This document shows positions 25,957 to 55,400 of a stretch of DNA of 64,000 nucleotides, piece after piece (the stretch's first letter is position 1; the number at the start of each line of letters is the position of its first letter). The position numbers were made by a program, and so were the translations under genes. This DNA is from Elainellaceae cyanobacterium (GTDB lineage: Bacteria; Cyanobacteriota; Cyanobacteriia; CAZCXK01), in NCBI GenBank assembly GCA_051117555.1, contig JBNPEG010000084.1:1-64000 (forward strand), read 5' to 3'. Under the pieces are notes generated by a model, which worked only from the letters and a program-made list of their open reading frames with translations, did no database searches and was not told the origin of the DNA.

Positions 25957-25984
25957 TTCCATACCGCTACCAGATTCAGAGATA
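25957..25984 (+). promoter_or_regulatory. Motif A (TTCCATA-N15-GAGATA) upstream of 26044
   Basis: TTCCATA ccgctaccagattca GAGATA. Confidence 0.75.
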
Positions 25985-26043
25985 GATGAAGTTGAGGGGG
26001 GACTTCATTATCAAATGATCGATGTACTTATTTTATATTCAAG

Positions 26044-27681
26044 TTGAGGTATACGATGCGCGAACGACTTATCCACACGCTAATTGATGGACTAGTTGCA
26101 AGTTCTGTAACGTTAACCGTCGCAACCGGAGTTTCTTTCTTTGTTCCTGGTATGTCTAGAGTAGCATTAGCCAGTGGGACTGCGGGGGCTTTGGGAGTAG
26201 TAGTTTCAACGAGTCAGCAGCACGAGCGACTAAAACGACAAATTGCCACAGAAATTGACGGTGCAATTTTCCAACTGGCCGAGCAGATTCATCAAGAATT
26301 AGGAACAATTTTAGAACAACCCCTAGAAAATAATCAAGCCTCTAAAGAGGATTCTAAATCGCAATCTGAAAGAACTTCCTCAAATTCTCAAAAGCCTTCA
26401 AGCGATTTCAAGAAGGTCAATTCTGCTCTACAATCTGACGATGTTCAAGAGGCGATCGCCTGGTTTACCAATCGAGAGGTTACTGTTGAGAATTATCGTC
26501 TGCCAGAACCTGATGCCGACGATATCTTTGACGGACTTGCGATGTACCTGGGCAAGCATTATGAACATCTCAGTAGTCTTTACAAACAGATGAAACGAAA
26601 TGTTGCAACGGGCAGACGATTTCGATTTAATCTATCTAGCAGTACCCATCGAGAAATTAATGACTGTACTCAATTTTGTCATCGATTGAATCGAGCGGGT
26701 CTTCTATCTTTCTATCGGTATTCCAAAACAGACAAGATTATTCAAATATCCTTGCAAAAGCGATCCGATGTGATCCATTTTTTTAATGGAGACTGGTTTG
26801 AGCGGTATGTCACGCATTTAGTAGCCAATTTGCTTGATGCCAAGGGTCTGAGTTACCAATGTCTGAGTAATCCACGTATTATTTATCCCAATGGCGATCG
26901 CTTTGCATTAGATTTGTTCTTCTTAGTTGAGGGACACCCCTTATGGATTGAATGCAAAACAGGTCGAGACTATAATGGTTATCTCCAGCGCTACTCAAAT
27001 CACCGAAAGGCACTCAGCATTGATATTTCCAAAGCATTCCTTGCTATTCTTGATATTCCAGAAGAGCAACGTCAGTCAACGATGAGAATGTGGGATCTCA
27101 CGGTGGCCGATCAGAACACGTTACTGCCTATGATTTCGGAAGTACTAAATCTAAATGCGATCGCTTCTACTGAGGTCGATGATCCTAATTCATCGTCAGA
27201 GACTTCTTTAGATATTGAGGAGTTGCTAAAAAAGATTCAACCTCTTCCTGAGCAACGAGGTATCGTGATTCGGGAACTCATTCGTACCGTTGAAAATCTC
27301 CATGAGCCCATCACCTTTCGAGAGTTGAGAGGTCTCATTTCAGAAGCAATCAATATTTCAAGGACACGAGTTCAGGCTGTGCTTCGAGCTTTATTTTGGT
27401 CGGGATATTTGCTCAATGATGCTCAAGAACCCGTTGCCTCTTATAACAGTCCGATTAGTAGCTTACAAGACTCTCGAGAGGAAGTACTCGATCGGAAGTG
27501 TATCGAGCGCTATGCTGGCGTTATTCTTGAGGTGTATCCCGACTACTTTGATGACGCAGATAATGTGAGGTTTTTCGAGGAAAGTGTTGGAGGACAAGCA
27601 CCCGATCGGACAACGATTGAATGGCTCAAAAATAATCAGGATAATGATTTCGGAGATGAAGAAATTTCCTGCTCAAATTAG
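26044..27681 (+). CDS. Paralog of 19021: membrane-anchored PD-(D/E)XK nuclease-like protein (likely start ATG 26056)
   Basis: DDVQEAIAW, FFNGDWFERY, FALDLFFLVEGHPLWIECKTG, CIERYA, GGQAP shared with 19021. Confidence 0.7.
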   Translation: MRYTMRERLIHTLIDGLVASSVTLTVATGVSFFVPGMSRVALASGTAGALGVVVSTSQQHERLKRQIATEIDGAIFQLAEQIHQELGTILEQPLENNQASKEDSKSQSERTSSNSQKPSSDFKKVNSALQSDDVQEAIAWFTNREVTVENYRLPEPDADDIFDGLAMYLGKHYEHLSSLYKQMKRNVATGRRFRFNLSSSTHREINDCTQFCHRLNRAGLLSFYRYSKTDKIIQISLQKRSDVIHFFNGDWFERYVTHLVANLLDAKGLSYQCLSNPRIIYPNGDRFALDLFFLVEGHPLWIECKTGRDYNGYLQRYSNHRKALSIDISKAFLAILDIPEEQRQSTMRMWDLTVADQNTLLPMISEVLNLNAIASTEVDDPNSSSETSLDIEELLKKIQPLPEQRGIVIRELIRTVENLHEPITFRELRGLISEAINISRTRVQAVLRALFWSGYLLNDAQEPVASYNSPISSLQDSREEVLDRKCIERYAGVILEVYPDYFDDADNVRFFEESVGGQAPDRTTIEWLKNNQDNDFGDEEISCSN

Positions 27682-27706
27682 TGAGATAGAAAGTTAGGTC
27701 GTAGTA

Positions 27707-27749
27707 AAAAGCCAAGAGGATCAAGCATCGCTTAATCCTCTTGGCTTTT
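27707..27749. terminator. Intrinsic, probably bidirectional, terminator hairpin
   Basis: aaaagccaagagga...tcctcttggctttt between convergent genes. Confidence 0.75.
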
Positions 27750-28054
27750 GCACAGGGCTACTTGTTTAGATTGATTGCGTTAGCTAGATAGCTCAGGCTA
27801 GGACGCCTATTTGTGTATTGTCAATTTGAGGAATGATCCTCAGGGGGAGAAATAGCCCCACAGTCGTGGCTTCGCTAAAGCTCAGCAATGTGTTATTTAG
27901 TCCACAGAACGAAGGCGATCGCTCTGTGGACTAATCCCTGTTAGCGCATTGGGTTACCAAAGTTCTGAGTCCAATAGTGTCCCCATTGCTGGTCGCCAAT
28001 AGGAAGGATACAAAACATCCTCTCTTCTTTGAAATACGTAATGACTCAGCAAGA

Positions 28055-30229
28055 CTAATGTTGAGTCATTCGAACCGCGGCGGCGGCATTGACAAGACCA
28101 TTGCCAAAGAAATACTGCTGAGCCGAAACAGGTTCAGGCAGTGGAAAGATACCTGATACTCGATCATCCCTTAAAGTCAGTCCAACATCTTGCTGTAATC
28201 GATAATGATTTAGGTCGGCTTGGGATAGGGTGAGGCCATCATAGTTAGCTGTTTCTTTGAGAATCGAGATAAGGCGATCGCGTCCTAAACCTGAGTTCTC
28301 GCCCTTCATTAACGCGATCACTCCTGAAACTGTCGGGGCTGAGAAGGAGGTGCCTTGAACTTGCACATACTCGCCTCTTGGATCAAGGCTGTATCCCCAG
28401 CCAAAATCAGGAACCTCCATCCCTTGCCAGAAGCTATCAACCCAGGTACCTCCTGTGGTCAAGATGCCACCGCTCAGCGCCGTTGCCGTTTCTCCACCCG
28501 GCGCTACTACGTCTAATCGCCCTCCGTAGCTACTGTAATATGTGCGTCTACCATCCAGATTGGTTGCACCTACTGATACCACTCCTGGAGTAGCAGCAGG
28601 GAATGACACTCCATCAAAGCTTTCGTTACCGGCAGAAGCCACTATCACTAAATTGGTATGGTTATCTAACAGTTGAAAAATCTGATCGACTACCCCTTGA
28701 TCGGGCATTACTCCACCTAGGCTCATATTGATCACGTCAGCTCCTCGGTCTGCCGCATATCCTAAAGCTTCAATGAGACGAGCAGAGGTAATTTCACCTC
28801 CCAAACCAAACACCCGCACTGGCAAAATTTGCGATCGCGGCGCAACACCAATGGCTCCCGTACCTTCTTCAGGATGGGCAGCAATCACACCTGCTGACCA
28901 CGTGCCGTGGAATTCAGCCGAAATCTCGCTGCGAATGATATTGCGAATTATACCTGCAACTTGCGTGCTGGAAATATTGGGATGCGAAGAACGAATTCGA
29001 TTAGCAAGGCCATCATACTGCTCTAGCAAATCCGCATCGGAAAGGCGGAAGGCATTCTGAAAATGGGGGCGCAAGATAGCAACTTCATCATCACTGATAC
29101 GGGTATCTGCATCTCCGGTCAGGCAACGATTCGCATCAGTCTTACTACAGACTAGAGTGTTACTGGTAAAATCCCAACCTTGTGATTCATAGGGAAATTC
29201 AGCCCTTTCTTCATCTAAGGTATAGACAGTATTGATCAAGTTGGCATGATCCCACTGGATTAAACTATCAAGAACAGCTACTACCACCCCTTCACCACTA
29301 TTACTCTGCTGCCATGCTTGAGTTGCACGGACGTCCGTACGAGGAAGTAAGCGGCCTCGTTTAGGGGTACTGTTCAAATGCCACGCGAGGGGGAGTAAAT
29401 TGCTAGAAAATAGTGTTTCAATTTGCGGCAAATGAGCAAGCTGTTGCTGAATCACGTCCAGTGCATTGGGAGTAATGGCGAGGCTTGCATCCTGAATATC
29501 TTGTTCTTGCACACGATAGACTAATGATTGAACAAAGTTAGGCGTTGCCGATTGAATGCCAACTACCCCGTTTAGCCGATTAGCGACATTGAGAACACCC
29601 ATTCCCGTCTCTGTGCGCGATCGCACCAGATAGCGATTCTCGGTGAACTGGAGTGGGCGAATGACCTCTAGCCCATAGCGGTTGAAAAGCACCTGAATTT
29701 GGCTGTTTGATAAACCAGGTTCTAAACTGATGAGAATTTCATTGGGCAGCACAACATCTAACTCAGGACTATTCTCATCCCCTGTGTTCAGGGATAGAAC
29801 GGGTAATGTGCCTTCAACGTAAGGCTGTTCTCGAATTTGCTGATCGACAGATGCTAGTCCTCGTGTTCCTGAAAGTTCGGTTACCAGAGCATAACGGGTT
29901 CCTAACGGTTCAATGTCTACGGATAGTGCCGAGCGGTAGGGCGAAGTGCGAATGGCTCGCGTCGTGCTGCTCGTGCCCTCTAAATCTTGCTGGAGCTGGA
30001 GATAAAGAGGTTGGCTCGATCCACCACGGGTGCTGCCTGCTTCGCGGAACGATACGGCGACGACATCAGTCCGCAAGGTGAGGGGGATTTGCTGCCCAAA
30101 GAAGGTATAGTACAAACCATCAGGTGTTTGGGCTTGGGCAATGGCAGTTGATTGCTGAATGGGTTGAAATGGCTGGGCGATCGCCAAAATACAGGCGGTT
30201 GCAACTAGGGTAGAATACAATCGTTTCAT
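28055..30229 (-). CDS. Secreted S8 (subtilisin-like) serine peptidase
   Basis: VVAVLDS, FHGTWSAG, SAGN, GTSFSAP catalytic motifs; signal peptide and long propeptide. Confidence 0.93.
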   Translation of the reverse strand: MKRLYSTLVATACILAIAQPFQPIQQSTAIAQAQTPDGLYYTFFGQQIPLTLRTDVVAVSFREAGSTRGGSSQPLYLQLQQDLEGTSSTTRAIRTSPYRSALSVDIEPLGTRYALVTELSGTRGLASVDQQIREQPYVEGTLPVLSLNTGDENSPELDVVLPNEILISLEPGLSNSQIQVLFNRYGLEVIRPLQFTENRYLVRSRTETGMGVLNVANRLNGVVGIQSATPNFVQSLVYRVQEQDIQDASLAITPNALDVIQQQLAHLPQIETLFSSNLLPLAWHLNSTPKRGRLLPRTDVRATQAWQQSNSGEGVVVAVLDSLIQWDHANLINTVYTLDEERAEFPYESQGWDFTSNTLVCSKTDANRCLTGDADTRISDDEVAILRPHFQNAFRLSDADLLEQYDGLANRIRSSHPNISSTQVAGIIRNIIRSEISAEFHGTWSAGVIAAHPEEGTGAIGVAPRSQILPVRVFGLGGEITSARLIEALGYAADRGADVINMSLGGVMPDQGVVDQIFQLLDNHTNLVIVASAGNESFDGVSFPAATPGVVSVGATNLDGRRTYYSSYGGRLDVVAPGGETATALSGGILTTGGTWVDSFWQGMEVPDFGWGYSLDPRGEYVQVQGTSFSAPTVSGVIALMKGENSGLGRDRLISILKETANYDGLTLSQADLNHYRLQQDVGLTLRDDRVSGIFPLPEPVSAQQYFFGNGLVNAAAAVRMTQH

Positions 30230-30264: not shown

Positions 30265-30292
30265 TATCTCTGAGGTAAAGAGCGATATGGAA
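30265..30292 (-). promoter_or_regulatory. Motif A upstream of the S8 peptidase
   Basis: Reverse complement: TTCCATA tcgctctttacctca GAGATA. Confidence 0.75.
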
Positions 30293-30331: not shown

Positions 30332-33300
30332 TTACAGGCCGTTGCCGATGAGGATGAAGGGTGCCCAGTAGTAAGGGTGGCTGAAACGAGTCTGAGATGA
30401 TTGAGCTGTCGATTGCCCTTCATCAGTATCGAGTTCTTCTGGATTGGGTTCTATTGCAATGCCTCGATCATCGGAGCGATCGCCTGTTTCTTCCCCTCTG
30501 AGCAGACTCAGTTGAGCATCGCGCAAGGCTTGAGCAATGGTGCCTGGATTATCAGCGGTATTTTCAGCCAAGTTATGGTAAAAGCTCTGCATCAACTGAC
30601 TGGTGCTGGCATCGTTCACCTGCCAAAGCGACGCAACGACCGTATCCACGCCTGCATCAATAAAAGTCTGGGCAATACCTGAAATTTCTCTGCCGTCTAG
30701 TTCGGAAACTGCTGCTTGATTAGATGAGCGACCGCCTAGAGCCGTTTCGCATGCTGAGAGCACCACCATGCTCAGAGACCGAAATTCGGCTCCAATATCT
30801 TGAATTTGGGAGATGCGCCAGTCTTCTTTGGTGCCCAGCATCAAGTAGGAGGAGTACAGGTTGGTGGGCATGTAGACGCCGTGGGTGGCGATGTGGAGAA
30901 TGTTGTGCCCGGCCAAGCTGTAAAACACATTTTTATCAAACTGACTATTTAGTAACTCTTGACCCGAATAAATCCCGACTTCATCAGTGCGATCGCCACG
31001 CTGAACAATCACATCCAGTTCGTCGGGCACATAACGCAGCCCCCTAAAACCGAACACATCGTCTGCCGGATCAACATCGGGTACTGCTTCTGACAGCCCC
31101 AAGGCCATTACGGAAATCGCGTTGGGGTCTTGGGGAAGAGGGGTATCTGCATGGCTCAACCAGGCGGCGGTGACGGTAGAAACAGTGTAGTTTTCAATCA
31201 GGTATTGGCTGCCGTCAAACAGCGCCGCCATCGGGATGTAGCGAACGGACCGATCCAGGGCAAAGACCAGGTTTTGAATATCATTTTGCTCTAGCTGCTC
31301 GCGCAACTGGGCAGGCATCAGCCAGTCATAAAGCTGCTGAGAAACCGCTTGAATCTCAGAGACAGGACTACACCGTCCCAATTCACATTGCGCCATCAGT
31401 TCATGGAAGCGAAACACCGCCTGGTTGATTTGCTCTTCACTGACGCCCTCCACATAAATGGGTTCTGCCAACCCTCCCTGAGTTGCCCACATGATTAAAA
31501 GCCGATCGTCTAGCACAATGGGATAAATCAACACCGTGCCTGGTTGAGCCTCAACGATTTTCTGCACATCCTCATAAATCAAGTCTTGTGGATCAGGGGC
31601 TTGATCATCAGCGGCGCGTCGCTGGCTCATAGCAGTTTCAAGCGTGCGAACGGCGTCGTTATAAGCAGTATTGCGTTCAGTGCGCTGTTGTTTGAGGCGG
31701 GTTAGCTCTTGTTGACCGCACTCTGGATCAGATTCACAGGTGAGAATTGCCGAGCCCAACTGAATCAGGTCATAGTAGGCAGCCGCCGTGGTTTCTTCTT
31801 CAGGGAACTGATCGACCTCACGGGAGGCAACCCCACTGCGGGTATAGTCTCGAATTTCTTGAAGCTTTAGCAGCTCAATAACTTGCAGGGCTTCGAGGAG
31901 ACGCCCTTGGGAAACGAGCAAGTCAGCGAGGCGGCGATAGGTATGGGAAACTGTATCAGTGTATGACTGCTGAAGTGCTTGGTCGAGCTGTTGAATGCCT
32001 CCCCGAATTTGTTCACGCGTATTGACGGACTGCTTTAAGAACACGATGGCAAGTTCGGGTTGGTCTTGAGTATCAAACAGGTGACCGATATTGTTAAGCG
32101 TAATGCCTTTTCCTGATTGATCCCCCACTTCAGTTCTGATGGCTAAGGCTTGCTGAAGGTACTCCAGCGCTTGCTGATACTGACCCAGATTGCGATACAC
32201 CAAGCCAGTGTTGTTGAGGGTGGTGCCTTCACCCGCGCGATCGCCTATTTCAATTGTGATAGCTAAGGCTTGCTGGTAATAGTCCAGTGCTTGAGAGTAC
32301 TGACCTAGACTGTCATACACCCCGCCAATGTTGTTGAGGGTGGCTCCTTCTCCAGCGCGATCGCCAATGTCAGTTTTGATGGCTAAGGCTTGCTGATAGT
32401 GGTCCAGTGCTTGAGAGTACTGACCCAGAATGTCATACACCGAGCCAATATTGTTGAGGGTGACTCCTTCGCCAAATCGATCGCCCACTTCAGTTCTAAT
32501 GGCTAAGGCTTGCTGGTAATAGTCCAGTGCTTGAGAGTATCGACCCAGATTGTCGTACACCAAGCCAATATTGTTGAGGGTGACTCCTTCGCCAAATCGA
32601 TCGCCAATATCAGTTTTGATGGCTAAGGCTTGCTGATAATAGTCCAGTGCTTGAAAGTACTGACCCAGATTGACGTACACCCCGCCAATGTTGTTGAGGG
32701 TGGTTCCTTCTCCACGGCGATCGCCAATGTCAGTTTTGATGGCTAAGGCTTGCTGGTAATAGTCCAGTGCTTGAGAGTACTGACCCAGATTGGCGTACAC
32801 CCCGCCAATGTTGTTGAGGGTGGTTCCTTCTCCAGCGCGATCGCCCACTTCAGTTCTGATGATTAAGGCTTGCTGATAATAGTCCAGTGCTTGAGAGTAC
32901 TGACCCAGATGGATGTACACCAAGCCAATGTTGTTAAGGGTAGTTCCTTCGCCACGGCGTTGGCGGAACCTCTCTCCTGGAGAATTACCCCCTTCAGCGT
33001 GGATGGCTAAGGCTTGCTGGAAATAGTCAAAGGCTTGCTCATATTGGCCTAGTTTGAAGTACATTTCACCGATATTGTTGAGGGTGGCTCCTTCTCCAGC
33101 GCGATCGCCCACTTCGGTTCTGATGGCTAAGGCTTGCTGGTAGTAGTCGAGGGCTTGCTGATAGTCGCCCAGATTGCTATACACCAAACCAATGCCAGTG
33201 AGAATAGTTACTTCTCTAGATCGATCACCAGTTTCAACATTGATTTCTAATGCCTGCTGATAATAGTCCAGTGCTTGAGAGTACTGACCAACACTGTAAG

Positions 33301-33589
33301 CAATTGCCCCTAGCCCTGTTACGCTTCGTCCTTCTCCACGGCGATCGCCAATTTCTCGATAAATCTCGAACGCCCTTTGAAGCATCGATAGCGCTTGCTG
33401 ATAGTCGCCTCGCTGCCAAAACTGAACTGACCTATCAAACAGTGCATCGGCTTCTGCTTGGCGATCGCCCTCTCCCACATCTTGAGCTAACGCCGTTGAT
33501 TCCTTAAATGACAGAGAGAAGGGCGATGGAACAATGAGCGATAGCAGAACCGTAGACGTCAACAAACCAAGCAAGCGGTGAGAGCGCAT
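30332..33589 (-). CDS. Secreted TPR + CHAT protease
   Basis: Signal peptide; about 12 40-aa TPRs (TLNNIG...QALDYYQQAL); HIATHG and SACETA; HPYYWAPFILIGNGL. Confidence 0.95.
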   Translation of the reverse strand: MRSHRLLGLLTSTVLLSLIVPSPFSLSFKESTALAQDVGEGDRQAEADALFDRSVQFWQRGDYQQALSMLQRAFEIYREIGDRRGEGRSVTGLGAIAYSVGQYSQALDYYQQALEINVETGDRSREVTILTGIGLVYSNLGDYQQALDYYQQALAIRTEVGDRAGEGATLNNIGEMYFKLGQYEQAFDYFQQALAIHAEGGNSPGERFRQRRGEGTTLNNIGLVYIHLGQYSQALDYYQQALIIRTEVGDRAGEGTTLNNIGGVYANLGQYSQALDYYQQALAIKTDIGDRRGEGTTLNNIGGVYVNLGQYFQALDYYQQALAIKTDIGDRFGEGVTLNNIGLVYDNLGRYSQALDYYQQALAIRTEVGDRFGEGVTLNNIGSVYDILGQYSQALDHYQQALAIKTDIGDRAGEGATLNNIGGVYDSLGQYSQALDYYQQALAITIEIGDRAGEGTTLNNTGLVYRNLGQYQQALEYLQQALAIRTEVGDQSGKGITLNNIGHLFDTQDQPELAIVFLKQSVNTREQIRGGIQQLDQALQQSYTDTVSHTYRRLADLLVSQGRLLEALQVIELLKLQEIRDYTRSGVASREVDQFPEEETTAAAYYDLIQLGSAILTCESDPECGQQELTRLKQQRTERNTAYNDAVRTLETAMSQRRAADDQAPDPQDLIYEDVQKIVEAQPGTVLIYPIVLDDRLLIMWATQGGLAEPIYVEGVSEEQINQAVFRFHELMAQCELGRCSPVSEIQAVSQQLYDWLMPAQLREQLEQNDIQNLVFALDRSVRYIPMAALFDGSQYLIENYTVSTVTAAWLSHADTPLPQDPNAISVMALGLSEAVPDVDPADDVFGFRGLRYVPDELDVIVQRGDRTDEVGIYSGQELLNSQFDKNVFYSLAGHNILHIATHGVYMPTNLYSSYLMLGTKEDWRISQIQDIGAEFRSLSMVVLSACETALGGRSSNQAAVSELDGREISGIAQTFIDAGVDTVVASLWQVNDASTSQLMQSFYHNLAENTADNPGTIAQALRDAQLSLLRGEETGDRSDDRGIAIEPNPEELDTDEGQSTAQSSQTRFSHPYYWAPFILIGNGL

Positions 33590-33625: not shown

Positions 33626-33653
33626 TAGCTCTGAGGCTGGAGAGGGTATGGAA
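33626..33653 (-). promoter_or_regulatory. Motif A variant upstream of CHAT gene 33589
   Basis: Reverse complement: TTCCATA ccctctccagcctca GAGCTA. Confidence 0.7.
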
Positions 33654-34823: not shown

Positions 34824-34851
34824 TTCCATACCATCTCCTGTGCCAGAGATA
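34824..34851 (+). promoter_or_regulatory. Motif A upstream of the CHAT pseudogene
   Basis: TTCCATA ccatctcctgtgcca GAGATA. Confidence 0.72.
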
Positions 34852-35375: not shown

Positions 35376-35389
35376 TCTAAACCTTTAAT

Positions 35390-35417
35390 TTCCATAGCAT
35401 TGCTCCGCATAGAGATA
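35390..35417 (+). promoter_or_regulatory. Motif A upstream of sigma-like gene 35428
   Basis: TTCCATA gcattgctccgcata GAGATA. Confidence 0.75.
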
Positions 35418-35427
35418 AGCGATTGTA

Positions 35428-36936
35428 GTGGAGGATGCCCCTTCCACGCCTATTCGTACCGTTACTAATCCAGAGACTTCCATCATGGATGAACCATCCA
35501 AATACTGGACATTCGTTCGACTAACAGCTGCTGGAAAACCTCAGGTTATTGAAGTTGAGCCTGCAAAAGGCTTTTTCAGGCGAGAGTTCCCTCATTTGGT
35601 AGGACAAACTGATATTGCTCATAACATGATTCAGCTTCGGTTGCATCAGCTTTACGACACTACGCCTATCAGAGGAGATGAAATGTCTGAAAGTTGGTTG
35701 GCTGAGTGCTGTCTTCGCTGTTTTATCTCAAATAGAATTGAGCAAGTCTGTTCCCAAATCCAAAAACAGTTTGGTAAGCAGCATGGATTCACCCAATATG
35801 ATCTGTTACCTTACGTGCTCAATGATGGTGATTTGACTACTACAGGAAGAAGACGTTCTTCAAATTCTCAAAACTCCTCAGACCATCCGTCATTAGCTAC
35901 AGAAATTTTACAAACGTTTACCCCGAAGCGAGGAAATTTAGGCAGTTGGGTAACTCGTTTGGTTCGTCATCATAAAGGTTTGAATAATGTTTTGCTTGAA
36001 CACGGCGTTTATTTGTTGAGCGATTGGGCAATTCTTAACGACACTCGGATTCCTCAGCTAGAGCGTATCTTGACCGAATTTTGCCCGCTTCCCAGACATG
36101 AGGTCTTTCAAGCGTCCGTATTGCTAGAGAGCTACCATGCAATCTATCGCCGAGATCGCATGAAACACCGTCAGGCAAATCGTCGATGCTTACCCCCATC
36201 CAACGAGCAGCTTTGCCGAATGAAACAATGGATGCAAAACGAATTCTCAATGGAGCGATCGCCCGATCAAATTGTGGCAGGGCTTCAAGATTTGGCTCAG
36301 CATCTCCGAGACTACCGGATCTTTGTCCGAAGTAATTATCTACCTGTTCAATCTATGGATGATCCCGATCACCAGACTGCAATTGAGTCTATCCAAATGA
36401 CGGATGAAAACGATGAAGAAGACGAGATCAATGAGTTTCTTCACTTCTATCGTCAGCAGTTTGATGAGGGCTTAAACCAGGCTATAGCCAAGGTTATTCA
36501 ACAACGGATTGAGTTCCTGAAGCGTAAGCGAAACCCGAAACACCATGTTTATCTCACGGGCTTACAGCTATTTCATTGCCAAGGTCTCTCTATGAGTGCC
36601 ATCGCCCCTCACATTGGTCTACAACGCCAAGATCAAGTAACATACTTGCTCAAACTCAAATCACTCCGAGCAGATGTTCGACATACCTTGCTCACGATTC
36701 TGCGCGATCGCATTCTCAAAAAGGCCCAAGACTACATTGATCCTGAGCGCCTTCATCATTTAGATCAGCAGATTGACGATGCTTTAGAATCGCATGCTAG
36801 TGCTGTAATCGAAGAAGCTCAAGATGAGGCAAGCACAGCCCGGAATCAACCCCTTCGCAGCGTGTTTGCTCGTCAATTATGTCGCCATCTTGACAAATTG
36901 ATGATTGATTCCCCACCTTCCCACCCAAACCCTTAA
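35428..36936 (+). CDS. Large sigma-factor-like DNA-binding protein (likely start ATG 35485)
   Basis: CLRCFIS...EILQTFTPKRGNLGSWVTRLV (region-2-like); LFHCQGLSMSAIAPHIGLQRQDQVTYLL (HTH); heads a DUF1822-CHASE2 operon. Confidence 0.65.
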   Translation: MEDAPSTPIRTVTNPETSIMDEPSKYWTFVRLTAAGKPQVIEVEPAKGFFRREFPHLVGQTDIAHNMIQLRLHQLYDTTPIRGDEMSESWLAECCLRCFISNRIEQVCSQIQKQFGKQHGFTQYDLLPYVLNDGDLTTTGRRRSSNSQNSSDHPSLATEILQTFTPKRGNLGSWVTRLVRHHKGLNNVLLEHGVYLLSDWAILNDTRIPQLERILTEFCPLPRHEVFQASVLLESYHAIYRRDRMKHRQANRRCLPPSNEQLCRMKQWMQNEFSMERSPDQIVAGLQDLAQHLRDYRIFVRSNYLPVQSMDDPDHQTAIESIQMTDENDEEDEINEFLHFYRQQFDEGLNQAIAKVIQQRIEFLKRKRNPKHHVYLTGLQLFHCQGLSMSAIAPHIGLQRQDQVTYLLKLKSLRADVRHTLLTILRDRILKKAQDYIDPERLHHLDQQIDDALESHASAVIEEAQDEASTARNQPLRSVFARQLCRHLDKLMIDSPPSHPNP

Positions 36937-36951
36937 CCACAATAATGACGA

Positions 36952-38286
36952 TTGCCTCACCGGAGATTTACGATGATGACTAATTCCCTATCTATTACCA
37001 CTATGTTTGATGCCGATTCAGCCTCGCCCAATACTATTTTTCTATCCAACAGCCAGATTGACCAGGCGATCGCACTGAGTGAACAGGTACGAGAACCCGA
37101 GCAGTGGCAAGTCTATCGGCAGGCGATCGCTTTAACTGCATTCAAACAATGGCTCGACGAAAGAGATTCCCAACTATTCGTTCAAGATGATCGCTCGACC
37201 CTTCAGTTTCCAGAATATGCCAGCTTAATTAATGCTGTTTGCAATATTCAAATTGGTCACTATCGAATCTGTCTCATTCCAACAGGAAGTGTCGCAGATA
37301 CTGTAGTATTTTTGCCACGAGCAACCGTTGAAATCTCAGACTTCGTTCCTCATCTATACGTGCTCATTGAGGTGTCAGATGAGTATGAACACGTCCAAAT
37401 TAAAGGGTGTCTGCGTCGCGATTCGCTTTTCTATCATCTAAAGTCTGTTCATTTGCCTACCAATGCTGACTGGACCTATTCAATTCCTCTAGACTGGTTT
37501 AGTCTTGACCCTGAGCGCATTCTTCTGTATCTTCGCTGCTTAGAACCCAATGCAATCCAAAGCCAAACAGTCGCTCCTCACGCACACGCTTCAGTTGCTC
37601 AGGTGAAAGCCGATCTAACTCTATTGCGTCCTCGTATTCAATCCAGCGATCGCCCGCTTTGGCGACTTTTAATGTGGGAGCAAGCATCAACTATCCTCTG
37701 CAATCCTGAGCTATTGGATCAAGTCTATTCCAGAACCCAGACAGGTGCGCACGCGTTGCAGGATTTGAAACAACGAGCCATCAACGTAGGATTGTGGCTA
37801 CAAAATCAAGTAGATGAACTAGCACAGGAATGGATTTTACTCCCTCCGCCAGTACTTGAAACTGTAACCGCTCAAGCAATGCGATCGCCCGTCGAGCAGT
37901 TTGATGATGTCATTTCTGCCTTAACTCAGCAAGGCATGATGATTCCGTCTCACGCAAGAGGAGCCTATCAAGATCTGAAAGGAGCAAATGCGGCTCTTCG
38001 GCTGTATGCCGTCACGTGGAAATTGCCTGAGTTGTCTCATTCCGATGAATGGACTCTGCTGCTCATGCTAGGGGCACAACCTGGCGCCCAACTACCTGAA
38101 GGGGTTCGGCTTCAAGTTCACGACGAACATCACGTCCTAGATGAACAAGTTTTGACCACCTCTACTTCAGATGCCCATCTTTTTTCACGGGTGATTGGAG
38201 ATCTCAACGAGCAGTTTTCGGTCACAATTAAGTTGGCAAATGGGGAAGTGGTGACTCGTCAGCCCTTTGTATTTCACCTATCTTAA
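36952..38286 (+). CDS. DUF1822 family protein (likely start ATG 36973)
   Basis: WQVYRQAIALTAFKQWL...HLYVLIEV...INVGLWLQ...MRSP...EQFSVTI. Confidence 0.8.
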   Translation: MPHRRFTMMTNSLSITTMFDADSASPNTIFLSNSQIDQAIALSEQVREPEQWQVYRQAIALTAFKQWLDERDSQLFVQDDRSTLQFPEYASLINAVCNIQIGHYRICLIPTGSVADTVVFLPRATVEISDFVPHLYVLIEVSDEYEHVQIKGCLRRDSLFYHLKSVHLPTNADWTYSIPLDWFSLDPERILLYLRCLEPNAIQSQTVAPHAHASVAQVKADLTLLRPRIQSSDRPLWRLLMWEQASTILCNPELLDQVYSRTQTGAHALQDLKQRAINVGLWLQNQVDELAQEWILLPPPVLETVTAQAMRSPVEQFDDVISALTQQGMMIPSHARGAYQDLKGANAALRLYAVTWKLPELSHSDEWTLLLMLGAQPGAQLPEGVRLQVHDEHHVLDEQVLTTSTSDAHLFSRVIGDLNEQFSVTIKLANGEVVTRQPFVFHLS

Positions 38287-38294: not shown

Positions 38295-40754
38295 ATGCCT
38301 GAACAGTCTATATTTCAACTCAACGTTCATCAGGTCGACCAGCAATGTTTGTTTGAGTTGTCCTGGAGCCAGGGACGACGGCTTACAGCTCTGCTTAGTT
38401 ATCCTCAGTCATTGATAGAACTCTATCAGCAGTGGCGACAGTTTTATCTCAGTTTCTATCGCACCGTTCAGATCCCGTTGGTTTTATCTCCACACGTGGA
38501 AAACGGACTGCGAGGCAGACGTGCAGAAAGCGGCAGCATTATCTCAACGCCGAAAGACTGGCAGGCTAAACTTGTTGAAGTCGAAGCAAAGTTTTTATAC
38601 GCATTCCACCATTGGTTGCGCAGCGCCGAACTCTACGAGATCCGTGCCAAACTCGCTGAGGCAAGTCGTCTAAATAGAGATGGGCAACCCGTTGATCTGT
38701 TTCTCACCTGCACGCCTATTCAACTCTCTCGACTACCGTGGGAAACGTGGGAAATAGGCACTGAATTTGCCTCAATGGGCGGAATCCGCATTGCCCGTTC
38801 TCCTGCCAATATCAGAGTAGAAGCAAATCCTAGAAATTCACTTCCGCGTCGCCGAACACGAATTCTGGCGATTTTGGGAGACGACACTGGCCTAAATTTC
38901 AAAGTCGACCGGGATGCGGTGCAGTCTCTTTCGCGCTTTGCAGATATAGAGTTTGTTGGCTGGCAACCGGGCAAATCCATTGACGAGCTAAAAACTGAAA
39001 TCACCCAGGCGATCGCTCATCCGCTGGGTTGGGATATCCTATTCTTTGCTGGACACAGTAACGAAACTACTATGACCGGCGGAGAACTGGCGATCGCTCC
39101 CCAAACCCACATCGCCCTGCGTGACATTGCTCCCCAACTGGCGATCGCCAAAGAACGGGGTTTGCAGTTTGCTATCTTCAATTCCTGCAACGGCATCAAT
39201 ATTGCCGAAACGCTCATTGACTTGGGACTCAGTCAAGTGGCTGTGATGCGAGAACCCATTCACAATCGAGTTGCACAGGAGTTCCTAATCCGGTTCTTGC
39301 AAAGTCTTGCTGACCACAAAGATGTTCATGAGTCATTGATTACAGCCAGTCAGTTTCTAAAGACGACTAAGAACCTGACCTATCCGTCTGCGTATTTGGC
39401 ACCCTCTCTATTTCGCCATCCCGACTCGACGCTGTTTCGTGTTCAACCGATAGGTTGGAAGCAACAATTCAGGCGACTTATGCCCAAGCGCTATGAGGCG
39501 ATCGCTCTAGCAGTTTTGATGATTCTGGGTAGTTATGGTTCTGTTCAATATCGACTGTTAGAAGGCAGAGTTCTGGCTCAGGCTCGCTACCGTCAATGGA
39601 CACACCGAGTTCAGTCTGATAAACCTTCCCCCTTACTTCTCGTTCGAGTGGATGGAGAGTCCCTTGATCGAGAAAATATCTTGGAACGGAACCCAATTCC
39701 ACCTGATTATCTGGCTAGTTTGATAACACAATTATCGGCTCGTGACGTAAGTGTAATCGGAATTGATTATTTGATCGACCGCCAACAAGAAGGCAGTGAT
39801 TTGATGGCGAAGGCTGTAAGGGAGGTAGCAGGACAAGGAACGATATTTGTATTTGCAAGTATCCAAGATAATCATGCTCGGTGGATGAAAACCACGCCAG
39901 AGATTGCCGATCCAGTCTATAGCATTCATGGGGATGCAGCCCGTGCTTGGGGAAATGACTATCGGATGCCACTCTTAATTGAAGGACGAGAACATCTCCT
40001 CCCGTTTGCACTATTGATGGTGTTGCTCCAGCAAAATTCTGGAACTTCCTCTATATCAAATGAACCTGTTGGCTTAGCCATTTTTGATAACCCCGGTCAG
40101 CTTACAGAATTGTTTTCGCCTCGCCTCTATTGGCAGTCGATTTCACGCCTGAGTTACCGTTTCAAACAATATTGGTTGCATCCAATTACCGATTTTTCGC
40201 TCCCACCTCATCAGGTTTATCAATCAATACCAGCCTGGAAGCTGCTAGAACAGCCAAACGCGCCTGAATTGAAGCACTTACCCCAGCAAGCGGTGATGAT
40301 CGCAGCAGGAGGCTATGAGGAAGCAGGATTAATTCCGGGTGATGATAATGAAAACTTTGAAGCTCCAGACGCGATGAGCTACTGGTATCGACAGGAGAAT
40401 CCTCATAACCCTTATCGTGAGATGACTGGGGGCGAACAGCATGCCTATCTCTTCCATCATTTTTTGAATCGTCGATTTGTTATCCCTGTCCCCAATCTGT
40501 GGATGATATTACTTGCAGCGATCGCTGGAAAGGTCACAGTTTTGCTACTCGCGCGACAGCGTTCAACGAATACCAAGGCATACCAGCGTTATGAAGGGTT
40601 GATTGGTTCAGGACTTTTAATTAGCACCGCAATATATGCGCTGATGAGCCTTGAGTTATATGTATCGACACTGGCGATCGCATTTCCTATTGTTCTTCCC
40701 ATCGCAGCCTATTGGGGCTATGTATTGCCATCGTTATTTCGAAATAAACCATGA
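38295..40754 (+). CDS. CHAT + TM + CHASE2 + 3 TM sensor protease
   Basis: ILAILGDDTG, FFAGHS, FNSCNG, MREPIHN; TM; CHASE2-like (IGIDYLID); C-terminal TM segments. Confidence 0.9.
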   Translation: MPEQSIFQLNVHQVDQQCLFELSWSQGRRLTALLSYPQSLIELYQQWRQFYLSFYRTVQIPLVLSPHVENGLRGRRAESGSIISTPKDWQAKLVEVEAKFLYAFHHWLRSAELYEIRAKLAEASRLNRDGQPVDLFLTCTPIQLSRLPWETWEIGTEFASMGGIRIARSPANIRVEANPRNSLPRRRTRILAILGDDTGLNFKVDRDAVQSLSRFADIEFVGWQPGKSIDELKTEITQAIAHPLGWDILFFAGHSNETTMTGGELAIAPQTHIALRDIAPQLAIAKERGLQFAIFNSCNGINIAETLIDLGLSQVAVMREPIHNRVAQEFLIRFLQSLADHKDVHESLITASQFLKTTKNLTYPSAYLAPSLFRHPDSTLFRVQPIGWKQQFRRLMPKRYEAIALAVLMILGSYGSVQYRLLEGRVLAQARYRQWTHRVQSDKPSPLLLVRVDGESLDRENILERNPIPPDYLASLITQLSARDVSVIGIDYLIDRQQEGSDLMAKAVREVAGQGTIFVFASIQDNHARWMKTTPEIADPVYSIHGDAARAWGNDYRMPLLIEGREHLLPFALLMVLLQQNSGTSSISNEPVGLAIFDNPGQLTELFSPRLYWQSISRLSYRFKQYWLHPITDFSLPPHQVYQSIPAWKLLEQPNAPELKHLPQQAVMIAAGGYEEAGLIPGDDNENFEAPDAMSYWYRQENPHNPYREMTGGEQHAYLFHHFLNRRFVIPVPNLWMILLAAIAGKVTVLLLARQRSTNTKAYQRYEGLIGSGLLISTAIYALMSLELYVSTLAIAFPIVLPIAAYWGYVLPSLFRNKP

Positions 40755-40763: not shown

Positions 40764-41597
40764 ATGTTCGGTATCTACTCAGCAATCCGTATATTTCCAA
40801 GACTTTGCTTACTTCTTTGTGCTTCCCTCCCATTTGCGATATGGGAAGTTGGAATCCTTAATATACGTGCGGCACATGCAATATTTTTTCAAGCACAAAA
40901 CTCATCTCCAAATCCATCACCGCCGCCGCCAATTCAGGGAATTTCTAGTCTTCGTACTCTTTGGAATACTATATTCAGCAGTCCACCTCCACCTCCCCCC
41001 CAACAAGGAATTTCAAGAGGACGTTATTTTTGCTTGATTGCCCCATATTCATTTGAAGAAGAAGTATGGAGCGATCGCCCAACGTTAGTATGGCAAGGTT
41101 CGGCGAGCAGCGTAGAACTCTATCAACAAGGCGGTTCAGAACCCATTTGGACATATCCCCTATCTGAATCGGATCAAATCCCTGGACTAGATGGTGCCCA
41201 GACAGAAGAATTTGATGAACCCGTCTATCAAGTTACCTATGATGGCGAACCACTTGAACCCGGACAAGCTTATGTATGGAGGGTGATTCAACCGTTCGCT
41301 CCTCGTCCGATTTCCTTCCAGATAATGACCACTGAAGAGCAAGAGAAAATTACGGATGATTTGACTGCTTTAGAATCTCAGCTTGAAGCCGAAGACACAG
41401 ATGAAACTCTCGCCATTCAAAAAGCGGACTACTTTGCAGATCAACAACTCTGGTCAGACTTTTGGCAACAAATTCTCGCAGTTGAATCTCCATCCGATGA
41501 ATTAAAAACTGTTTTGGATGAAACCATTGCAGAATTGTGCCCTCCGCCACCAGACCCTGATGCCAATTCGAGAGAATTCAGGGGTTCTGTGCGTTAA
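40764..41597 (+). CDS. DUF928-like secreted protein
   Basis: Signal peptide, Pro-rich linker, SRGRYFCLIAP...RPTLVW...LEPGQAYVW...QLWSDFW; same operon position as DUF928 9476. Confidence 0.65.
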   Translation: MFGIYSAIRIFPRLCLLLCASLPFAIWEVGILNIRAAHAIFFQAQNSSPNPSPPPPIQGISSLRTLWNTIFSSPPPPPPQQGISRGRYFCLIAPYSFEEEVWSDRPTLVWQGSASSVELYQQGGSEPIWTYPLSESDQIPGLDGAQTEEFDEPVYQVTYDGEPLEPGQAYVWRVIQPFAPRPISFQIMTTEEQEKITDDLTALESQLEAEDTDETLAIQKADYFADQQLWSDFWQQILAVESPSDELKTVLDETIAELCPPPPDPDANSREFRGSVR

Positions 41598-41739: not shown

Positions 41740-41767
41740 TTCCACAGGGTCTCCAGCCTCAGAGCTA
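41740..41767 (+). promoter_or_regulatory. Motif A variant upstream of CHAT gene 41802
   Basis: TTCCACA gggtctccagcctca GAGCTA; flanks homologous to the 33626 copy. Confidence 0.65.
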
Positions 41768-44966: not shown

Positions 44967-44994
44967 TTCCATACCCGCCGTTGTCCCAGATATA
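44967..44994 (+). promoter_or_regulatory. Motif A variant upstream of CHAT gene 45139
   Basis: TTCCATA cccgccgttgtccca GATATA. Confidence 0.6.
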
Positions 44995-49064: not shown

Positions 49065-49406
49065 ATGACAACATCTCATCTGCCAACCCTCTTGCAATCT
49101 CGATTAGCGACCACCCCAGAGCAGGTGAAAGCCTTTTGCCAGCGGTGGTGTATTTCAGAATTTGCTCTTTTTGGATCTGTTTTGCGACCGGACTTTCAAC
49201 CTGAAAGTGACGTGGATGTTTTGGTAAGTTTTAATGAGTCGGGAGACAACCGTTGGAGCATCTTCGATCTAATTCGGATGCAGCAAGAACTAGAATCCCT
49301 TTTTCAACGAGAGGTCGATTTAGTAGAAAAAGCGGGTCTGCAAAATCCATATCGTCGGGCTGAAATCTTGGATACCTGTCGGGTTATCTTTAGCGACAAA
49401 TGGTAA
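49065..49406 (+). CDS. mntA: Minimal nucleotidyltransferase (MNT) antitoxin
   Basis: FALFGSVLRPDFQPESDVDVLV...REVDLV. Confidence 0.88.
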   Translation: MTTSHLPTLLQSRLATTPEQVKAFCQRWCISEFALFGSVLRPDFQPESDVDVLVSFNESGDNRWSIFDLIRMQQELESLFQREVDLVEKAGLQNPYRRAEILDTCRVIFSDKW

Positions 49407-49768
49407 GTAACAAACGTGATGCTGCTTCTCTCTGGGATATGGTGCAGGCTATCCGGGATCTGCAAGCCTTTACGGCGGGTCTTTCCTATGAGAACTATAT
49501 CAGTAACCTGATGGTGCAGCGGGCCGTAGAGCGGCAACTAGAAATTCTAGGAGAGGCTGCCCGACGGGTTTCCCAGGATTTCTGCCAATCCCATCCGGAG
49601 ATAGATTGGACGGGCATCATTGGCCTTCGGAACGTATTAGCCCATCGCTATGATCAGATTCGCTGCGATCGCATCTGGGCTATTCTTGACGAGGAACTCC
49701 CTCTGTTGCTGACTCGGCTAGAACAATTGCTACCGCCTTTACCAGACAATTCAAGCTTTGAAGAATGA
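49400..49768 (+). CDS. hepT: HEPN/DUF86 ribonuclease toxin
   Basis: AVERQLEILGEAA...GLRNVLAHRY (RX4HXY); overlaps the MNT gene. Confidence 0.88.
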   Translation: MVSNKRDAASLWDMVQAIRDLQAFTAGLSYENYISNLMVQRAVERQLEILGEAARRVSQDFCQSHPEIDWTGIIGLRNVLAHRYDQIRCDRIWAILDEELPLLLTRLEQLLPPLPDNSSFEE

Positions 49769-53075: not shown

Positions 53076-53127
53076 AGGTCAGAAGAAATCTGACACTAGC
53101 AATCACTAACCTAAATTAGAAGTAAGT

Positions 53128-53172
53128 GGCGATCGCCCTTTCTAGCTTCAACGTGTAGAAAGAGCGATCGCT
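53128..53172. terminator. Hairpin closed by two HIP1 sites downstream of the CHAT gene
   Basis: gcgatcgccctttcta...tagaaagagcgatcgc. Confidence 0.45.
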
Positions 53173-53441: not shown

Positions 53442-53469
53442 TTCCATATCTGCTTCATGCCTAGAGATA
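53442..53469 (+). promoter_or_regulatory. Motif A upstream of 53512
   Basis: TTCCATA tctgcttcatgccta GAGATA. Confidence 0.75.
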
Positions 53470-53511
53470 AGTCTGGATAGAAGTTCCAATTACTCATAAG
53501 GAAAGACCACC

Positions 53512-54048
53512 ATGCAACGTTTTTTAAGTCTTACTGCCCTAGCTGCAACCGTTGTCTTTGCTATCTCTTTGAAGCTTCCTTTGACACATGTTTCCTTGGC
53601 TCAAGTATCACCCGAACAAGCCACACCCGAACAATCCCCTGATCCTCGTATTGGAGAGGCATTGGAAGCATTGAATTTAAGCTACGAAATAGAAGACGAT
53701 GGCGCCTATCGAGTCGGCCTTCAATTCAATGATGGTCGAACTCAAACCGCTTGGATTAGCTCTCGCACTAACGTCATCGGCCCGTTTGAGATTCGGAAAA
53801 TTATATCTCCAGCATATCGGTCAGACGAGGAACTTTCATCCGAAGTTGCCAATATGCTGCTTCAAGATACTGCTCGTAAGAAGTTAGGGGCATGGCAAAC
53901 ATTCAGCAGAGAACAGACTCACGTTGCCGTATTTACTGCCCAGATCAATGCAGATAGCAGCGCAGAAGAATTGGGAGTCGCGCTCTCCGTGGTTTTGCAA
54001 TCTGCTGACCAAATGGAAGAAGAATTGACCAATGGCGATCGCTTTTAA
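53512..54048 (+). CDS. Secreted protein with YbjN/T3SS-chaperone-like fold
   Basis: Signal peptide; YEIEDDGAY...GRTQ...LGAW...ADQMEEELTNGDRF. Confidence 0.6.
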   Translation: MQRFLSLTALAATVVFAISLKLPLTHVSLAQVSPEQATPEQSPDPRIGEALEALNLSYEIEDDGAYRVGLQFNDGRTQTAWISSRTNVIGPFEIRKIISPAYRSDEELSSEVANMLLQDTARKKLGAWQTFSREQTHVAVFTAQINADSSAEELGVALSVVLQSADQMEEELTNGDRF

Positions 54049-54131
54049 TCTGGAGAGAATATAATTTCAGTGCGGTTATCGCTGTGCTGACCCCTAGGTG
54101 CCGACATGCTAAATCGCTAAATCTGGAAATT

Positions 54132-54159
54132 TTCCATATCTGTGTATCTACCAGAGATA
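54132..54159 (+). promoter_or_regulatory. Motif A upstream of TPR gene 54200
   Basis: TTCCATA tctgtgtatctacca GAGATA. Confidence 0.75.
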
Positions 54160-54199
54160 AGCATAATTGACACAAGATCAGGATGAGAGAGGTTGAGCA

Positions 54200-54952
54200 A
54201 TGCTACTCCCGATGTTTGCTTTTAAGACAGATTCGACTACGTTATTGACTGTTAGCCTCAATTCGACGTCTGCTCAAACTGGAGAATATTTCAGTAGACT
54301 TGGGGCTGCCTATCGTCAGGCTGGAAAATTTTCAGAGGCAATTCAACACTATGAACGTGCATTAAAATTTTTCAGTGCAACAAACAACAATGTCGGGGTT
54401 GGGCGAAGTCTGAACAATTTAGGTGTTTTATATGGTCAGCTTGGAGAGCCAGACCGTGAACATCATCTTTGTCAAATCGCAATCGGTATTTTAGAGGATT
54501 CTCAAGACCAAGAAGGTCGAGCGATCGCCCTCTACAACGCGGGAGTCGCATCTTGTAAACTCAATCAGCATCAACAGGCAAGGCTTTACTTTGAGAAAGC
54601 TTTGCCTGTCTGGGTCGCAACTGGAATATATGCAAAAGAGGCAGCAACGCTCGGTCGTTTGGCTAAAATCTATGATTGTCTTGGCAACTCGACCAGTGCG
54701 CTATGTTGTTATCAGGAAGCGGCGTTCATCTATAAGGAATTGGGCGATCGCTATCGTGAAGCCTTTATACTTCGGGCAATGGCGGATATCTATCGAGACA
54801 GTAGTCTGCACTATTCTGCGATTGACTGTTATGAGCGATCGATCAGGTTGTTTCAGAAGACGGGACATATATCGGAGGCTGGACAGATCGTAAACCAGTT
54901 GGAGAAGGTGCGCCAGACGTTGGGAGATGCATGTATTGAATTTTCTCATTGA
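54200..54952 (+). CDS. Stand-alone TPR protein
   Basis: About 5 TPRs (SLNNLGVLY, ALYNAG); no CHAT domain and no clear signal peptide. Confidence 0.85.
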   Translation: MLLPMFAFKTDSTTLLTVSLNSTSAQTGEYFSRLGAAYRQAGKFSEAIQHYERALKFFSATNNNVGVGRSLNNLGVLYGQLGEPDREHHLCQIAIGILEDSQDQEGRAIALYNAGVASCKLNQHQQARLYFEKALPVWVATGIYAKEAATLGRLAKIYDCLGNSTSALCCYQEAAFIYKELGDRYREAFILRAMADIYRDSSLHYSAIDCYERSIRLFQKTGHISEAGQIVNQLEKVRQTLGDACIEFSH

Positions 54953-55162
54953 ATCGGCTGGCGATCGCCCTTAAAACAGCGTTCTATGTCTCGTTTGATG
55001 GGCGATCGCCACCCAACAATCAACATCCACCGTAGGGGCAAATCGTGATTTGCCCAGTGCAACAGGTGAGTGTTTCTCTACAATCAAGGGCTCGACACAG
55101 AAGCCGGGGATCTAAATCGTCACATAAACCTCTGATGAGCAATCCCTAAAGTTTTCTTCAAA

Positions 55163-55192
55163 TTCCATACTGTCTTCTTACTCATGGAGATA
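55163..55192 (+). promoter_or_regulatory. Motif A with aberrant 17-bp spacer, in front of a gene stub
   Basis: TTCCATA ctgtcttcttactcatg GAGATA; region ~55096-55240 is a diverged copy of ~34756-34900. Confidence 0.55.
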
Positions 55193-55226
55193 TATTGATG
55201 TCGGTCATCATCCCCTCGGAGAATTT

Positions 55227-55358
55227 ATGCGTCCCCATCGCTTTCTCAGCTCGGTGATATCTACGGTTCTGCTGGCGCTTATTATTCCACCATCTTCTCA
55301 CGATGTTTACGGCATAGCATCGCATTGGCATGACCTTGCCGTAGGCAAACCGTGCTGA
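55227..55358 (+). pseudogene. Signal-peptide stub paralogous to the N-terminus of CHAT gene 33589
   Basis: MRPHRFLSSVISTVLLALIIPPS versus MRSHRLLGLLTSTVLLSLIVPSP; same leader tgtcggtcat...ggagaatttatg. Confidence 0.7.
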
Positions 55359-55372
55359 ATACTCACATCTTT

Positions 55373-55400
55373 TTCCATACCTCTCTTTGGCTCAGAGATA
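55373..55400 (+). promoter_or_regulatory. Motif A upstream of CHAT gene 55442
   Basis: TTCCATA cctctctttggctca GAGATA. Confidence 0.75.

Follow-up and report, generated by a model that had tools for sequence, protein, structure and literature searches.

What reads a two-box DNA motif that stands, time after time, in front of caspase-like protease genes? The question is raised by a 64,000-nucleotide stretch of an Elainellaceae cyanobacterium, hereafter the window, which comprises bases 1-64000 of contig C13 (90,932 bases) in a draft genome of 6,060,088 bases and 256 contigs. The motif, TTCCATA-N15-GAGATA, also precedes a gene (35485-36936) whose 483-amino acid (aa) product resembles sigma factors in its predicted fold. 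We consider it probable that the motif serves as promoter for a sigma-70-like factor of its own, one that has diverged very far, and that this factor is the 483-aa product itself.

A two-box motif confined to one island

The window contains seven exact copies of the motif, on the strands and at the positions given by an earlier, sequence-only reading of this DNA, where 0.01 would be expected by chance; none of 100 shuffled sequences reached seven. The variants described in that reading are present too, i.e., 33626(-) and 41740 with GAGCTA, 44967 with GATATA, and 55163 with a spacer of 17 nucleotides (nt), and the copy at 41740 also departs in its upstream box (TTCCACA). When up to two mismatches were allowed, the window yielded 10 matches against 1.70 expected, the three additions being 33626(-), 41740(+) and 44967(+). 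The sites of the window and the genes behind them are as follows.

25957..25984, + strand: exact motif, 59-71 nt before an unknown gene of 545 aa (26044/26056)
30265..30292, - strand: exact motif, 35 nt before the S8 subtilase gene 28055-30229(-)
33626..33653, - strand: GAGCTA variant, 36 nt before the TPR-CHAT gene 30332-33589(-)
34824..34851, + strand: exact motif, before a 44-codon stub of a TPR-CHAT N-terminus and a CHAT remnant, 35019-35375
35390..35417, + strand: exact motif, the self site, 67 nt before ATG 35485 of the sigma-like gene
41740..41767, + strand: TTCCACA/GAGCTA (two mismatches), 34 nt before the TPR-CHAT gene 41802-44657
44967..44994, + strand: GATATA variant, 144 nt before the TPR-CHAT gene 45139-48987
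53442..53469, + strand: exact motif, 42 nt before an unknown gene of 178 aa, 53512-54048
54132..54159, + strand: exact motif, 40 nt before a TPR-only stub, 54200-54952
55163..55192, + strand: degenerate copy with a 17-nt spacer, relic of a duplicated TPR-CHAT leader
55373..55400, + strand: exact motif, 41 nt before the TPR-CHAT gene 55442-58732

Across the whole genome, the motif is confined to one island on C13. All ten exact copies fall on this contig, between 25957 and 79239, and a scan of spacers from 10 to 21 nt gave these 10 copies at 15 nt and 0-1 at each other length. A weight matrix trained on 13 sites was over-fitted, and thus it was used as a filter only; above its cut-off of 14 bits there were 15 sites in the genome, again all on C13, two of them outside the training set (64110, with GAGCTA, and 55163, with the 17-nt spacer). 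Four sites lie past the end of the window, at 64110, 66778, 75624 and 79239. For the looser pattern TCCATA-N15-GAnnTA there are 13 matches on C13 and 7 in the other 5.97 Mb, about 11-12 being expected by chance genome-wide.

The earlier statement that the sites are intergenic and correctly oriented holds for the enlarged set: all 15 are in non-coding DNA, which in our gene map makes up just 12.6% of the region 25.6-82.1 kb, and all 15 point toward the next open frame, whose start codon is 33-144 nt downstream for 12 of them. Six sites, i.e., 33626(-), 34824, 41740, 55163, 66778 and 75624, share their flanks, being paralogous copies of one duplicated TPR-CHAT leader, and thus the number of independent sites is about 10 and not 15. 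The sequence-only reading had denied that the motif spread just by duplication. This is borne out by the remaining nine sites, which have unrelated spacers and flanks and precede unrelated genes (S8 protease, sigma-like gene, RTX, C14, unknowns). The six shared leaders would be the natural evidence for taking the motif as a functionless relic of TPR-CHAT gene duplication; the nine other sites argue against it, and the conservation of the motif across cyanobacterial families, described below, in our view refutes this extremely improbable explanation.

The motif is made of two asymmetric boxes and forms neither a palindrome nor a hairpin. Promoter matches of the sigma-70 type in the same 20 kb are at chance level (28 against 23 +/- 5 expected). 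We also considered that the downstream box might hide an ordinary -10 hexamer, and rejected it: the sigma-70 consensus scan gave none at the sites. That the two boxes are a repressor operator or an element of leader RNA, and not a promoter, appears very improbable to us. Sites 33-144 nt ahead of the start codons could also be part of a 5' leader, but the absence of palindrome and hairpin does not favour this reading, the strict spacing is typical of -35/-10 pairs, and the orthologous loci keep the internal spacing although their distance from motif to start codon varies between 32 and 345 nt.

The sigma-like gene, its operon and a paralogous module

The self site at 35390 stands before an operon of four genes, whose order is repeated elsewhere in the window in a paralogous module headed by a much shorter factor. 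Their components are listed here, together with a second motif found next to the paralogous module.

35485..36936, + strand: sigma-like factor, 483 aa (P0003); the called start, ATG 35485, is residue 20 of the 35428 frame
36952..38286, + strand: DUF1822 protein (Pfam), the modelled partner of the sigma-like factor (complex model)
38295..40754, + strand: CHAT (caspase-fold) protease fused to a CHASE2 membrane sensor (Pfam)
40764..41597, + strand: 277-aa protein, no family, in the position held by DUF928 (9476-10225(-)) in the paralogous module
13611-14270, - strand: short factor of the paralogous module, 219 aa, with weak region-2 and region-4 matches
12625-13581, - strand: DUF1822 of the paralogous module, same operon order
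10262-12604, - strand: CHAT-CHASE2 of the paralogous module, same operon order
9476-10225, - strand: DUF928 of the paralogous module, same operon order
14317-14353(-), 14408-14444(+), 16620-16656(+) and 25830-25866(+): copies of the CTGCACAAAA motif

The sequence-only reading had begun the sigma-like gene at GTG 35428, which is probably too early. For 35000-38000, a search for RNA or DNA sequencing runs gave none. In their source records, relatives of the short factor go by the name 'sigma-70 family RNA polymerase sigma factor'. The 483-aa protein thus has, in its own operon, the place that a sigma has in the paralogous one.

The paralogous module has a private motif of its own, CTGCACAAAA-N14-[CA]TGAGA[AC], with four copies in the genome, all of them on this contig. 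It precedes the short sigma gene 13611-14270(-), an RTX gene (14470) and a PPC-domain gene (16892). The fourth copy lies 127 nt upstream of the first TTCCATA site, and thus the 26044 gene would have two types of promoter in tandem. Related boxes were seen by eye upstream of the short-sigma orthologues. The two modules are alike in operon order and in having a private motif before the factor gene; in the short-sigma module this motif likewise precedes neighbouring secreted-protein genes, and its upstream box is of the TGCAnA type that most relatives of the 483-aa family have. They differ in the distance between boxes, which is 4 nt longer in the short-sigma motif, and in the factors themselves, since the short one has 219 aa and a source name of sigma-70, whereas no profile similarity to it was detected for the 483-aa family.

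Two further short-sigma/DUF1822 modules are encoded in the genome, on contigs C106 (~35,930-36,800) and C21 (2589-4400). The C106 module adjoins an array of a 35-nt direct repeat with unique spacers, CRISPR-like in look.

Predicted fold of the 483-aa protein

The full model of the 483-aa protein has a mean predicted local distance difference test score (pLDDT) of 81.7. Among 48,161 chains its best match was SigA domain 2 (Z 8.0, root-mean-square deviation 3.3 over 99 residues, model residues 46-174); sigma factors took eight of the top ten places, and SigW, SigE, CnrH, SigK, AlgU, sigma-28 and BldN came lower. Residues 325-425, folded alone (pLDDT 90.2), were best matched by region 4 of sigmaE on its -35 DNA (Z 6.6, root-mean-square deviation 2.5, 68 of 69 residues), and sigma region-4 domains took all of the top eight places and 19 of the first 22. 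Foldseek also ranked sigma factors first for both models, at E values of 0.08 and 0.7 only. The comparison with sigma domains 2 and 4 that the earlier reading had in mind thus gave both as best matches, at modest scores, and the weight that we place on the sigma fold comes from the make-up of the match lists and the near-complete coverage of the small domain. According to these models, the protein would carry a sigma-2-like domain followed by a sigma-4-like domain, in the correct order. In the ESM Atlas its feature neighbours are clusters of cyanobacterial proteins, 340-550 aa long, with Sigma70_r4 in 12-87% of their members (scores 0.91-0.95; 189-206 shared features).

The family is large and unannotated. 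A family search returned 770 matches, all of them unnamed or 'hypothetical', and every named one was cyanobacterial; an exhaustive profile search gave 687 representative clusters at E up to 0.001. The 150 matches listed from the latter were all close family members, and thus they provide no bridge to annotated sigma factors.

The 35428 frame had been proposed to encode an alternative sigma factor, with reference to sigmas of the extracytoplasmic function (ECF) type. As a reading of motif and protein together, this proposal was favoured by the computational tests applied to it. One support is the predicted fold: the model has a sigma-2 fold, with modest scores, and a C-terminal sigma-4 fold with a helix-turn-helix, on which Foldseek agrees in rank and not in E value. 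The gene is also preceded by its own presumed promoter and co-encoded with a presumed regulator, although the binding of DUF1822 is modelled only. An ECF assignment does not stand by sequence models, as the protein matches neither the region 2 nor the region 4 model of Sigma70, nor by architecture: in place of two domains in about 200 aa it has 483 aa, twice the ECF length, with a 45-residue N-terminal piece and about 130 residues between the domains.

The motif accompanies the family in other cyanobacteria

We collected 80 loci of other cyanobacteria that encode relatives of the 483-aa protein (40-50% identity; 1,258,582 bases in total). The pattern T[GC]CATA-N15-GAnnTA was found at most 400 nt upstream of the factor orthologue, on the same strand, in 48 of the 80 loci, against 0.06 by chance, and this number rose to 59 with one or two deviations, 57 of them having the 15-nt spacer. 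The usual form among the relatives is aaaCTGCATA[AG]G...CCAGAnnTA. The loci as a whole contain 106 matches, compared with 3-8 in shuffles, and the spacer profile has its peak at 15 nt (106), followed by 16 nt (22), 17 nt (17) and all others (2-8).

More than half of these matches, 58 of 106, are non-self sites; 50 have an open frame of at least 80 aa starting within 400 nt and eight have none. Leaving out one duplicate frame and one factor gene, 48 frames were scanned, of which 10 encode DUF1822 and 17 TPR or TPR-CHAT proteins, 13 belong to no family, and one each encodes an S8+PPC protein, an aspartyl protease, a haem peroxidase-RTX protein and a DUF4347 protein. The DUF1822, TPR-CHAT and protease frames indicate that the same kinds of genes are marked in other genera.

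The leader between motif and start codon contains, in 16 of the 80 loci, a further element, GGAGGTGAnACAATTG, located 52-224 nt before the factor gene (L003, L006, L012, L013, L017, L022-L024, L033, L040, L043, L045, L049, L058, L061 and L063). It was not seen in the window. The idea that it is a small upstream open reading frame was rejected, as the frame is not conserved; it may act as leader RNA or in the control of translation.

The boxes also vary in step with the protein. In the upstream box, C or T replaces G (T[CT]CATA) in the window and in loci L016, L062 and L072, and the same four loci, and only these, have the predicted recognition helix RQDQV[TAS][YAS]LL, the others having AQ[YF]QV[TS]RLL. 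The sites agree with this division: the three variant-helix loci have four of TCC type and none of TGC type, C13 has 13 and none, and the other 77 loci have one of TCC type and 101 of TGC type. Downstream boxes of one locus tend to share the two free positions of GAnnTA: 27 of 64 site pairs within loci agree in both, a number that none of 2000 shuffles reached (mean 10.4, maximum 22). The co-variation of box and helix is consistent with the helix reading the upstream box, short of statistical proof.

These data bear on the idea that another alternative sigma of the genome reads the motif, the 483-aa protein being no more than a member of its regulon. The genome does encode three more sigma/DUF1822 modules, and the link between protein and motif is a predicted one. 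Nevertheless, the short sigma of this contig goes with another private motif, differently spaced, the TTCCATA-type motif tracks the 483-aa family in 48-59 of the 80 loci, and it changes together with the recognition helix of this family; we regard a foreign reader as improbable.

Sigma factor or activator

Several observations weigh against the view that the 483-aa protein is a sigma factor with the motif as its promoter. At the level of sequence, the protein matched nothing in Pfam or NCBIfam, even with the E cut-off relaxed to 10 or 1, and for 34 relatives, at E up to 1, there was no Sigma70 family among the 25 most-matched families listed. One of 53 relatives matches Sigma70_r4_2, at E 0.023, and no member reaches any of the Pfam sigma models. 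Neither the searches of PDB sequences with two profiles, which found no sigma, nor the profile-profile comparison of the family with the short sigma family of the window (hhalign), which found nothing, altered this picture. At the level of structure, Z values of 8.0 and 6.6 are within the range common for helical models, the Foldseek matches of both models all had E values above 0.001, and the approximately 130 residues between the two sigma-like domains look SANT/Myb-type and not like a known sigma region 3, residues 181-285 resembling three-helix domains of that type.

The distribution of the sites has its own exceptions. The TPR-CHAT genes 49992, 59802 and 70971 and the trypsin-like genes of the island are without their own site; they may be co-transcribed with the preceding gene. 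Among the 48 frames scanned in the other loci there are four housekeeping genes with no relation to the rest (P-type ATPase, ectoine synthase, HD and ribosomal S13), which are probably chance matches. In five other genomes, a stricter pattern gave 27 matches against four for the reversed control, scattered over the chromosomes, and thus the tight clustering seen here is not general. Concerning the co-variation, the four variant proteins form one clade (Shimodaira-Hasegawa-like approximate likelihood ratio test support 100), which reduces the joint change of helix and box to one evolutionary event, and promoter duplication could contribute to the agreement of the downstream boxes within a locus.

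The main rival explanation makes use of several of these points. The 483-aa protein would be a DNA-binding activator whose helix-turn-helix occupies the upstream box, while a different sigma reads the downstream box and recruits the polymerase. This would fit the lack of a sequence-model match to sigma regions, a length and an extra middle domain that are unusual for a sigma, the restriction of the co-variation to the upstream box and the C-terminal helix, and the presence of helix-turn-helix domains of LuxR/DeoR type in the C-terminal fold list at similar Z (ranks 9, 23, 44 and 46). It does not fit so well with the N-terminal half, whose nearest neighbour among all the chains compared is sigma domain 2, the polymerase- and -10-binding part. 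The sharing of downstream-box dialects within a locus is what is expected if one co-evolving protein reads both boxes, a 15-nt spacing fixed across genera suits a single protein touching both, and the gene occupies the position of the sigma gene in the paralogous module. We regard an activator as unlikely, and the 483-aa protein as more probably a sigma-70-like factor.

DUF1822 as the predicted partner

In 70 of the 80 loci the factor gene is followed by a frame of at least 300 aa that starts between -30 and +350 nt from the factor stop, and in 22 cases overlaps the factor gene by 4 nt. Of these 70 frames, 34 align with the DUF1822 protein of the window, at 34-44% identity. A complex prediction based on the family alignments of the factor and DUF1822 scored 0.79, the best of three controls scoring 0.00. 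In a benchmark, 116 of 157 solved complexes and 2 of 215 mismatched pairs came up to this score, counts that hold only roughly here, the complex model having been built on our own alignments. Three runs shared at least 60% of the contacts, and the pLDDT of the partner was at least 74. In the modelled interface, the N-terminal half of DUF1822 meets factor residues 88-100, 170-195, 215-285 and 386-407, touching both sigma-like domains. Moreover, there is a natural fusion of the 483-aa family with DUF1822, P0330 (50% library). Other natural fusions of the family are with AAA_35 (P0243), with AAA_35 and TRADD-like_N (P0314) and with CHAT and TRADD-like_N (P0377).

The island and a proposed regulatory circuit

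The regulon extends 15 kb past the window. According to a Pfam scan, the genes behind the sites in this part of C13 encode an RTX protein (64171), TPR-CHAT proteins (66842 and 75688) and a C14 caspase with DUF4384 (79543). Most of the products of site-marked genes have a hydrophobic N-terminus ending in AQA, AQD or AQE, which, judged by eye, is signal-peptide-like. The product of the 26044 gene had been labelled nuclease-like; all that speaks for this label is a Card1-like match at E 0.017, and it was not confirmed.

Other features of the island are the following. A nucleotidyltransferase/HepT toxin-antitoxin pair (49065-49768) is inserted between two TPR-CHAT genes. Uma2-family genes are found at 33887-34462(-) and at C13 83997-84578(-). 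The island is flanked by a TPS-domain (two-partner secretion) protein of 1126 aa (3277-6657) and by a ShlB/FhaC-type transporter (C13 85138-86871(-)); these two proteins could export some of the island products.

The analysis documents the motif with its restriction to the island, its orientation and its conservation at fixed spacing in other genera, and likewise the gene contents and the predicted folds and interface. From these we infer that the motif is an active promoter, which protein reads it, that DUF1822 acts as an anti-sigma and that proteolysis is the trigger, and join these inferences in the following mechanism. The C-terminal sigma-4-like helix-turn-helix of the factor would read the upstream box (TTCCATA here, TGCATA in most relatives), and its sigma-2-like domain the downstream box (GAGATA), exactly 15 nt away, with transcription beginning a few bases past the latter. 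The factor would transcribe its own operon, i.e., the genes for the factor, DUF1822, the CHAT-CHASE2 sensor protease and the 277-aa protein. It would also drive at least a dozen genes of the island, encoding TPR-CHAT caspase-like proteases, the S8 subtilase, the RTX protein, the C14 caspase and small unknown proteins. DUF1822 would act like an anti-sigma and keep the factor inactive, and the membrane CHAT-CHASE2 protein would relieve this hold on an outside signal.

A broader proposal can be made more tentatively. The 483-aa protein may found an unannotated and essentially cyanobacterial family of long sigma-70-like factors, whose promoter code (TGCATA-N15-GAnnTA with lineage dialects) co-evolves with the recognition helix. 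Such factors, kept in check by DUF1822 until a membrane caspase-like sensor frees them, might switch on a whole set of exported TPR-CHAT proteases, which would amount to a transcriptional 'caspase cascade' in a multicellular bacterium.

Relation to known systems

The trio of sigma, DUF1822 and caspase-CHASE2 genes was catalogued in 2021 by comparative genomics (Kaur, Iyer, Burroughs and Aravind; PMC8195603). In the portion of that article available to us, the sigma is proposed to regulate 'a multiplicity of genes', and its release by the caspase-CHASE2 protein on an external signal is proposed for the trio. What can be seen of the EACC2-caspase system described there has the same gene set as the locus studied here, i.e., CHAT with a C-terminal CHASE2 (38295-40754), DUF1822 (36952-38286) and, directly upstream, the sigma-like gene. 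A tie of the 483-aa family to the same world is seen in its fusions with TRADD-like_N, CHAT and AAA_35. The two accounts differ in that the portion available (PMC8195603) names no promoter motif, regulon or target genes, whereas targets are identified here. A further difference is that the sigma position is held here by a 480-aa family that has no sigma annotation in any source. A literature search found in print neither a promoter motif or regulon for the sigma/DUF1822/caspase-CHASE2 systems nor a sigma-like reading of the long family.

Although these systems were predicted in 2021, no experimental test of them was found in the literature. The island-specific motif now provides a list of targets, the exported TPR-CHAT and other proteases. 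It also points to a specificity switch of a single base, the G or C of the upstream box, to which a variant of the helix corresponds, and there is a modelled pair of factor and partner. Together, the target list, the base switch and the modelled pair make the prediction accessible to experiment. In addition, the motif flags a large 'hypothetical' family as probable transcription initiation factors, which would re-annotate hundreds of cyanobacterial genomes.

Autoregulated regulons of an ECF sigma and its anti-sigma are well known, e.g., sigmaE-RseA and SigW-RsiW. The system proposed here would be like them in having a dedicated factor, a private promoter of two boxes that is found before the factor's own operon as well, a predicted partner encoded next door, and a regulon of exported proteins. 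The sigma-2-like and sigma-4-like folds modelled for the 483-aa protein resemble those of SigW, SigE, SigK, CnrH, AlgU and SigL. The box sequences are unlike the usual ECF consensus. The 483-aa factor further departs from the ECF regulons in falling outside the sequence models, in being twice as long and in its extra middle domain. Its partner is a soluble DUF1822 protein of 440 aa and not a small membrane anti-sigma, and the trigger proposed here would be a caspase-fold protease in place of the site-1 and site-2 proteases.

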